Source: Sarea resinae (taxonomy: Eukaryota). From it: a DNA stretch of 49,745 nucleotides. How positions within the stretch are numbered: the first letter of the stretch is position 1; the number at the start of each line of letters is the position of its first letter. Below the pieces are notes generated by a model, which did not search any database, was not told where the DNA came from, and was given only the letters and a program-made list of their open reading frames with translations. This document shows positions 1-907 of the stretch, piece by piece. The stretch is taken from assembly GCA_026026165.1 (NCBI GenBank), contig JAPEUD010000076.1, positions 62,001 through 111,745 on the forward strand, read 5' to 3'. Both the position numbers and the translations under genes were made by a program.

Positions 1-907
1 CTCATGCCCGGCCCAGGCGGGTGCGGAAACCCTTGGCCCGGTGGCGGGAATTGGAAGTTGGGTGGGAGGCCTCCTGGCGGGGGGAACGGCATGCCGCCGG
101 GAAGACTACCAGGGGGTGGTGGTCCGACGCTACCTGCGCCGCCGGGAGGTGGGAACGGGAAAGGCGACGGAGGCATGCCGGGGTGGAGTGGGGCGCCGAC
201 GCCTCCAGGAGCTGTGTTGTGACCGAGTCAGCAAATTGGCTTGTACGATTGGGCGGGCGGGCTGGAATGATAGGAACTTACGTGGCGGCAGCCCTGCACC
301 GCCGGGCAAGAATGGTGGTGGGATGGCACCGCCGGGACCTAATGAGAGTTCTGGTCAGTATGTGGCCGAGTAATGCTTTCTATATCGCGATCGTGGATCT
401 GGCCATACCTCCAAAGGCAAACGGCGGCGGTGGGAAAGGCTGTCCTGGACCCGCGGGGTGTGCAAGCATAGGATTTGCGCCGGCTTGGCCTTCGGCGGCG
501 TAAGAGGAAGTTATGGAGTCGATGACAGACTGTGCTTTCTCGTGGCCAATCTCTGTAGAACGACGTCAGCTTGTGTCAGCTTAAAGAATATTCGTATATG
601 AACACTCGTTCGAGGTTTGGTGATGTATCCGAGGACGTCGAGTGTGATGCCACATACGTTGGTAGTAGTCGACGACATTTCTTAGATGGTTTCGACCGCT
701 ATTATGGGCCTTGCGCACACTCATCGAGTCGTGAGTGAGATAGACATCGCAATAGTCGCCTTGAAAGTCAGCATTATTGCCCTGGACGAGTTCTCGCCGC
801 CGATGATAGAAGAGCTCGAAGAGAGCGGAGTGACCTACAGAAGAGTGCACGGAGAGTCAGTATTGCTGGACTGCGATAGCGGGGACAGGGGACTTATATT
901 TTGGCAT
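1..907 (-). CDS. YHC1: U1 small nuclear ribonucleoprotein C (U1-C / Yhc1 / SNRPC orthologue), 3' end beyond window
   Basis: Exons 907-898, 844-839, 759-658, 552-409, 338-282, 211-<1 give [62 protein letters not shown]..., the U1-type zinc finger followed by a Pro/Gly-rich tail. Introns 2-5 are GT-AG with CTGAC branch points; intron 1 is AT-AC. Confidence 0.95.
845..897 (-). other. Non-canonical AT-AC spliceosomal intron (intron 1 of U1-C), 53 nt
   Basis: Minus strand reads ATGCCAAAAT|ATAAGTcccctg...caataCTGACtctccgtgCAC|TCTTCT|GTAGGT. Removing it restores M-P-K-F-F-C exactly. Confidence 0.85.

Follow-up and report, generated by a model that had tools for sequence, protein, structure and literature searches.

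A probable U2-type AT-AC intron beside a six-nucleotide microexon in the U1-C gene of Sarea resinae and other Pezizomycotina

The U1-C gene of Sarea resinae, which encodes a 5′ splice-site recognition factor belonging to the U1 snRNP (small nuclear ribonucleoprotein), very probably has as its first intron a genuine U2-type (type II) AT-AC intron that is removed by the major spliceosome. The gene lies on the minus strand of a 49,745-nucleotide (nt) stretch of GenBank assembly GCA_026026165.1 (contig JAPEUD010000076.1, positions 62,001 to 111,745 of the forward strand), called the window here and numbered from its first letter. Intron 1 (897-845) runs from A897-T896 to A846-C845, and its donor at 897-892 is the U2 consensus in every position except +1. 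An ordinary CTRAY-type branch site lies near the 3′ end, with the branch A at 857, 12 nt ahead of the end of the intron. An earlier note, made from the sequence alone, had listed these signals (ATAAGT, TACTGAC at 862-856 and a terminal CAC), and a reading of the minus strand confirmed them.

Reading frame and splice junctions at the start of U1-C

Joining 907-898, 844-839, 759-658 and 552-409 (Table 1) gives an open frame that begins MPKFFCDYC. This start carries the first zinc-ligand cysteine, so that the zf-U1 finger runs from residue 1 with its first Cys at residue 6. The earlier note had held that exact excision of 897-845 yields MPKFFCDYC; the start is indeed obtained, but intron 2 has to be excised as well, leaving a 6-nt microexon between the two introns, as the junction string predicted in that note already implied. 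On its own, exon 3 matches Pfam PF06220 with E 2.1e-17 over profile positions 7-38 of 38 only, and the intron-free locus L001, whose first 16 coding bases are those of the window except for a synonymous Pro codon (CCG versus CCA), covers profile positions 1-38 (E 1.1e-22). The opening ATG CCN AAR T is kept in all loci classified in the survey described below, and the ten opening bases are the same, the third base of the Pro codon being free, wherever a classified locus carries an intron here. In the window, retention of intron 1 leads to a stop after 16 codons and retention of intron 2 to a premature stop as well; skipping of the microexon stays in frame and gives MPKCDYC, with two conserved residues lost.

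Canonical introns do not produce this start. Every ATG in 1300-760 was combined with zero, one or two GT/GC...AG introns of 30-600 nt, and the pattern M-x-x-[FY][FY]-CDYC was produced by 0/579,058 of the enumerated GT/GC-AG models, in agreement with the earlier statement that no GT-AG route leads to the conserved start. Two hydrophobic residues stand ahead of CDYC in 58 of the canonical models, and those listed (40 of the 58) use arbitrary upstream ATGs and carry long unconserved extensions. An earlier, looser enumeration, since replaced by the stricter pattern, gave 685 frame-open canonical models, all from arbitrary starts. Nested (stwintron-like) or recursive splicing was considered and rejected on a reading of the sequence: removal of any internal GT...AG piece makes no new canonical donor from which the conserved start would follow. 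An AT...AG intron spanning 897-760 as one piece was likewise rejected, because its product is MPKCDYC and its ends pair A with G.

Both predicted excisions are seen in a relative, in the contigs L012 and L014, which agree at 97.2% of positions over 941 nt and have the 22 bases up to AAAAT in common. L014 has the exact AAAAT/TCTTCT junction and retains intron 2; L012 keeps the AT-AC intron and lacks intron 2 (TCTTCT/GCGA). Intron 3 is present in the genomic relatives L062, L045 and L068 and missing from both contigs, and L012 reads open from MSVRK to a stop; because of these features the two are taken as RNA-derived. Read in this way, they would show between them that each intron is cut out at the predicted bases and that either can go first. 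Along its whole length, the open frame of L012 shares 93% identity with an Aureobasidium protein. Moreover, L068, when spliced by the AT-AC model, matches 186/187 residues of the annotated Aureobasidium pullulans protein P0122, which stands for a cluster of 61 sequences. As judged from its sequence, P0122 can be made only by the AT-AC model, and this match means that public annotation already implies the intron.

Table 1. Features of the 5′ part of U1-C and of its upstream neighbour (positions in the window)
Feature	Position	Strand	Details
Coding exon 1	907-898	minus	ATG 907-905, CCA 904-902, AAA 901-899, T 898; Met-Pro-Lys and base 1 of codon 4
Intron 1, AT-AC, 53 nt	897-845	minus	Donor ATAAGT 897-892; branch TACTGAC 862-856; 3′ end CAC 847-845
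Microexon, 6 nt, TCTTCT	844-839	minus	Remainder of Phe4, Phe5, base 1 of Cys6
Intron 2, GT-AG, 79 nt	838-760	minus	Donor GTAGGT 838-833; branch TGCTGAC 773-767; 3′ end AAG 762-760
Exon 3	759-658	minus	Remaining zinc finger (second Cys ligand and both His ligands); Pfam PF06220 zf-U1
Intron 3, GT-AG	657-553	minus	GTATGT...CAG; the 658-to-552 join stays in frame, ...DYYQQIGHEK... as in homologs
Exon 4	552-409	minus	92% identity to the best database proteins, the nearest named ones being from Lecanoromycetes
ORMDL open reading frame	1597-1956	minus	Immediately upstream of U1-C; Pfam PF04061, E 2e-49, profile positions 25-132 of 135; its first exon must be located further upstream

Past exon 4, the U1-C gene goes on through more short introns and leaves the window at position 1.

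The first intron in other fungi

Metagenome contigs were scanned with an alignment of the closest predicted proteins, 234/268 matched stretches were confirmed and the best 80 loci were kept. With the window these make 81 sequences, of which 77 were classified, L002, L030, L051 and L062 being without a 5′ end. No intron separates the ATG from the zinc-finger exon in 39/77, a class that includes spliced transcripts (L013, for example, has its intron-free form in L017 and L018). A single GT-AG or GC-AG intron occupies the first site in 14/77, and two introns flank a microexon in the rest except for two partly spliced contigs (L012 and L014): the first intron is GT-AG in 13/77 and AT-AC in 9/77 (the window, L043, L044, L050, L056, L045, L068, L052 and L080, the last classified by eye), and the second is GT-AG throughout. 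The microexon reads TCTTCT, TCTTTT, TTTTCT or TTTTTT in the 13 GT-AG loci and the AT-AC loci.

The ends of the AT-AC form are conserved and its interior is not. All ten distinct AT-AC introns (the window and nine relatives) start with ATAAGT and end in TAC or CAC, measure 49-57 nt and have CTRAY-type branch sites with the branch A 11-12 nt from the end; between lineages, their interiors are 47-60% identical on optimal alignment. The comparison of intron 1 across relatives that the earlier note had proposed thus finds the AT...AC ends kept in every AT-AC intron, in diverged lineages. At this site GT-AG introns measure 50-56 nt, have their branch A mostly 12-13 nt from the end and share with the AT-AC form the position, the phase, the microexon and the second intron; they differ in their GT...AG ends, in their varied donors (GTAAGT, GTAATG, GTAATT and GTGAGT) and in a second donor that never begins GTAG. 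Because size and branch spacing match, the two forms are regarded as one homologous intron with different terminal letters, and on these features intron 1 of the window is homologous to a same-size GT-AG intron that other Pezizomycotina have at this position. The second intron's donor begins with GTAG in 9/9 AT-AC loci (GTAGGT, GTAGGC or GTAGAT) and in 0/13 GT-AG two-intron loci, where it begins GTAAG or reads GTGAGT or GTACGT. The GTAG second donor may be inherited, tolerated (an intron that starts with A cannot use the TAG) or needed as an AG signal.

Carriers of the AT-AC form include Aureobasidium-like and Cenococcum-like Dothideomycetes, and Lecanoromycetes. Exon 4 of L050 is 100% identical to a Cenococcum geophilum protein. 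The predicted proteins closest to the window are those of the lichen-forming Lecanoromycetes Lambiella, Xylographa, Icmadophila, Acarospora and Schaereria, which reach at most 92% identity in exon 4. When tblastn scores against the first 120 proteins were summed to name the loci, the result was mostly uninformative because of proline-rich low-complexity matches; it was kept as a weak hint for L080, which scores best against Lecanora and Lepraria proteins, and for L079. Mis-predicted proteins extend the list. Starts of the form MPKYK or MPKYR, which read through the donor and require A at +1, occur in Lambiella, Xylographa, Villophora, Aureobasidium sp. and Saccharata, and the string H/Y-S-S-V-G, which requires an A-[C/T] end followed by the microexon and a GTAG donor, occurs in Lambiella, Aureobasidium sp. 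and Polytolypa hystricis, an onygenalean Eurotiomycete. From these read-through proteins and the loci together, the AT-AC state spans Dothideomycetes, Lecanoromycetes and at least one Eurotiomycete, and it appears to be an old state common to them. The GT-AG-type loci at this site are closest to Sordariomycete and Leotiomycete proteins. Predictions of MPKCDYC, in which the microexon is omitted, come from Pyricularia, Trichoderma, Rutstroemia, Pseudogymnoascus, Tolypocladium and Amphichorda and would fit GT-AG ends in Sordariomycetes and Leotiomycetes. In a gene tree of 147 nt of exons 3-4 with 74 rows, from which L052 and six other sequences were left out, 31/59 inner branches are unsupported; on this tree the AT-AC label requires 5 changes, at least 3 of them forced by well-supported branches.

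Other states of the site were also recorded. L079, matched best by a protein of Patellaria atrata (Dothideomycetes), has a single GC-AG first intron (GCAAGC...CAG) and no second intron, so the first intron can be G-type in a Dothideomycetes-like locus where the microexon is gone. The intron-free loci L060, L063-L066, L069, L076, L035 and L036 encode MPKYFC (AAA TAT/TAC TTC) instead of MPKFFC, as do Elsinoe and Elasticomyces (P0127 and P0151). AAAT+AT+TTCT is the remnant expected from an imprecise genomic deletion of an AT-AC intron, and a plain Phe-to-Tyr change explains MPKYFC equally well. Six loci (L053, L055, L058, L059, L067 and L071) have a very C-rich first intron with weak donors (GTAACC, GTACCT), and in the same six Ile replaces the conserved Met (DSISVRK).

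Protein annotation of this end is poor, as the earlier note had expected of gene predictors. Among 255 predicted U1-C homologs (P0001-P0255), 81 begin MPK[FY][FY]CDYC and 9 more have that start behind an extension, so that the true start is present in only 90/255. A further 79/255 begin at MSVRK, downstream of both N-terminal zinc-ligand cysteines; most of the Lecanoromycete proteins closest to the window do so, which shows that the predictors lost the 5′ end. Eight of the 255 read through the A-type donor (MPKYK/R), 8/255 omit the microexon (MPKCDYC) and 4/255 read through intron 2.

Proposed mechanism and alternative explanations

In the mechanism proposed for intron 1, U1 and U6 would recognise ATAAGT, a consensus donor apart from the A at +1, and U2 would pair with TACTGAC. 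A non-Watson-Crick contact between a first A and a last C replaces the G-G contact in the second splicing step, and here the first base A and the last base C would make that contact in the second catalytic step, as G and G ordinarily do. Removal along with the GT-AG intron at 838-760 would leave the 6-nt microexon and give MPKFFCDYC. A change at one end alone would block splicing of an essential gene, and this mutual dependence of both ends is most likely why the AT-AC ends persist. The long persistence needs no further function, since reverting either end on its own should stop the second step in an essential gene.

The intron is read as a major-spliceosome type II AT-AC intron because the relevant passage of PMC10639083 reports no convincing minor introns in Ascomycota, which have lost most minor small nuclear RNAs, and because its donor is the strong ATAAGT consensus that PMC5029451 gives for U2-type AT-AC introns. 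A U12-type intron, removed by the minor spliceosome, is favoured by the AT-AC ends only and has a negligible chance of being correct. The donor is U2-type ATAAGT and the branch CTRAY-type in all ten AT-AC introns compared; the U12-type ATATCC donor and TCCTTRAY branch motif occur in 0/10 of them, and none has a ATATCCTT-type donor or a TCCTTAAC-type branch 10-15 nt from the 3′ end. The earlier claim of major-spliceosome signals and no U12 donor therefore stands, both on the missing ATATCC and on the account of Ascomycota in PMC10639083.

Some points weigh against a type II intron at 897-845. We infer the use of the major spliceosome with its U1, U2 and U6, the A-C contact and the reason for the persistence. 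The RNA origin of L012 and L014 is deduced from their missing introns and not from a record, and the exact junction was seen in an Aureobasidium-like relative, not in the window's own organism. Polytolypa, Lambiella, Xylographa and Saccharata were placed among the carriers by way of mis-predicted proteins, in which the His/Tyr codon fixes only an A-[C/T] end, and the 147-nt gene tree is too poorly resolved to tell a single origin of the AT-AC state. The sole deep DNA support comes from run X1 and possibly from the source sample itself: a contig of 4458 nt re-assembled from X1 at word depth 346 matches the window letter for letter over 519-1300, and among the three DNA runs compared 793-1300 is covered by X1 only. 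This support is not independent because X1 may be the window's source sample. The air-metagenome runs X2 and X3 gave contigs identical to the window at 354-504, 501-651 and 354-604, at depth 2-3; they also contain diverged U1-C exons of other fungi, in contigs that leave the window at 759-767, with loose ends at 759, 761 and 767, the exon 3/intron 2 boundary.

An artefact or a dead gene, with 897 and 845 wrong through faulty sequencing or assembly or with the whole gene a pseudogene, finds its only encouragement in the rarity of such introns: 24 of the 608,562 U2-type introns in five animal and plant genomes are AT-AC (PMC1557818). It would need two specific, mutually compensating errors, and the same two letters, A at +1 and C at -1, recur in 10/10 distinct AT-AC introns, which upholds the earlier argument that two deviating ends speak against a sequencing error. 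With the re-assembled reads, possibly from the source run, agreeing with the window at depth 346, and with the frames of exons 3 and 4 intact at 92% identity to the best homologs, we give this explanation practically no weight. Very improbable, too, is a different 5′ end, in which an upstream start codon or exon would be spliced canonically into 870 or 865-839 and the ATG at 907 would go unused. The 58 canonical models mentioned above do enter the frame, through AG acceptors at 893, 871 or 866, but those listed rely on arbitrary ATGs and weak donors and add 10-50 unconserved residues, which would precede a zinc finger that begins at residue 1 in the Pfam model. Such a start would also translate the interior of the intron, unconserved in sequence and in length (49-57 nt), and would pass over the ATG CCN AAR T opening conserved in all classified loci.

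Two further proposals concern a function for the AT-AC ends. One is that the mismatched donor ties productive U1-C splicing to the level of U1-C, with intron 1 retention providing the feedback. In favour, this conserved intron belongs to the U1-C gene itself, and its retention leads to an early stop in the window and in 8/9 other AT-AC introns, that of L012 reading through; a premature-stop isoform is thus predicted for the window, and in a relative the transcript-like contig L012 has lost introns 2 and 3 but still contains intron 1. U1-C improves in vitro binding of several mismatched 5′ splice sites, +1C included (PMC4383343), and in human cells proteins of the U1 snRNP are cross-regulated through splicing (PMC3798272). 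However, since U1-C would aid the mismatched donor, as reasoned from PMC4383343, more U1-C would give more productive mRNA, a positive and not a stabilising feedback. Many relatives are GT-AG or intron-free at this site. L014 is the opposite intermediate, with intron 1 out and intron 2 kept; the AT-AC intron is not uniquely slow, because either flanking intron can be the retained one. Inside the compared AT-AC introns only splice signals are conserved (47-60% identity, 49-57 nt), with no conserved regulatory element beyond them and GTAG in the next donor as the sole extra, and mutual dependence alone accounts for the conservation of both ends. A sensor of this kind is therefore improbable.

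The other proposal, which would add to the type II reading without replacing it, is that the AT-AC ends are no frozen accident and act as an orthogonal pairing code that forces inclusion of the 6-nt microexon; on the sequences compared this is unlikely, though less so than the sensor. Ends of the form A...C would be incompatible with the AG of intron 2, and the TAG within the next donor would be unusable as a wrong 3′ end for an intron that starts with A. As such an intron cannot close on either, microexon skipping would be excluded. The TAG behind an all-pyrimidine microexon might also serve as an early signal, pyrimidine tract plus AG, for an intron without an AG of its own. Skipping yields MPKCDYC, and predictors err in just this way in 8/255 proteins, all from GT-AG lineages where named. 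All nine AT-AC genomic loci have two introns and 0/14 single-intron loci are AT-AC (with L080 classified by eye); the single-intron L079, with its best match in the Dothideomycete Patellaria, is GC-AG; and the GTAG second donor separates 9/9 AT-AC from 0/13 GT-AG two-intron loci. Yet such a code is not required, as the same microexon persists in lineages where both neighbouring introns are GT-AG. Common ancestry also intrudes: about 5 AT-AC lineages stand against about 8 GT-AG lineages, so the association could be inherited and not selected, and most single-intron loci look Sordariomycete-like and never were AT-AC.

Known counterparts and significance

Parker and Siliciano reportedly found in 1993 that G1A and last-G-to-C changes suppress each other. 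The yeast double mutant (Parker and Siliciano 1993, as cited in PMC5029451) has the same two end changes as the U1-C intron, in a fungus with the major spliceosome only, and provides the basis for a paired change; it was an artificial reporter, whereas the U1-C intron is natural, belongs to an essential gene and has been conserved across classes. An engineered AT-AC intron is also spliced in yeast (PMC5029451). The nested AT-AC intron of Saccharomyces cerevisiae RPL30 (Qin et al. 2016, PMC5029451) is natural and likewise occurs in an ascomycete without the minor spliceosome; as described there, it is a 1-2% side product with a donor unlike ATAAGT and no coding role, whereas the U1-C intron has the canonical type II donor and must be removed for the protein to be made.

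The animal U2-type AT-AC introns of human SCN4A and SCN5A (PMC1557818, PMC5029451) share with the fungal intron the AT...AC ends, the ATAAGT donor and an ordinary branch site, as well as termini conserved over long distances and extreme rarity (PMC1557818). Unlike them, the U1-C intron measures 53 nt, belongs to a filamentous ascomycete lineage without a minor spliceosome and adjoins a 6-nt microexon; its gene encodes a 5′ splice-site recognition factor. For SCN4A and SCN5A, removal by the major spliceosome has been demonstrated experimentally (PMC1557818), whereas for the fungal U1-C intron it is proposed. The human U1C/U1-70K cross-regulation (Rösel-Hillgärtner et al. 2013, PMC3798272) is similar to the sensor idea in coupling the level of a U1 snRNP protein to a splicing decision. 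The human case concerns regulation of another gene through an alternative exon and has dosage data (PMC3798272), whereas a sensor in fungal U1-C would be a proposal from sequence, with no alternative productive isoform.

Among filamentous fungi, such introns are described in PMC1557818 as hypothesised only, in some xylanase genes, and the passage concerned in PMC6176087 merely lists AT-AC as a permitted junction type. PMC3091305 was discarded as a source, since 'AT-AC' occurs there only in polyketide-synthase domain strings. Open-access PMC and bioRxiv texts yielded no account of fungal U1-C with an AT-AC intron or a microexon, supplements and subscription journals being outside that search. 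The kind of intron is thus already known; the deeply conserved instance in the U1-C gene, with its microexon context, is new.

A rare intron class here appears as a constitutive part of an essential gene, conserved across fungal classes without the minor spliceosome and adjoining a 6-nt microexon. U1-C is widely mis-annotated in Pezizomycotina, and annotation pipelines that permit AT-AC introns and microexons would correct this. If the ends do act as a pairing code, they would be a natural case in which splice-site compatibility solves the problem of microexon definition, kept across at least three Pezizomycotina classes. Tractable carriers such as Aureobasidium pullulans offer a natural system in which to study both the pairing of first and last bases and the definition of microexons.

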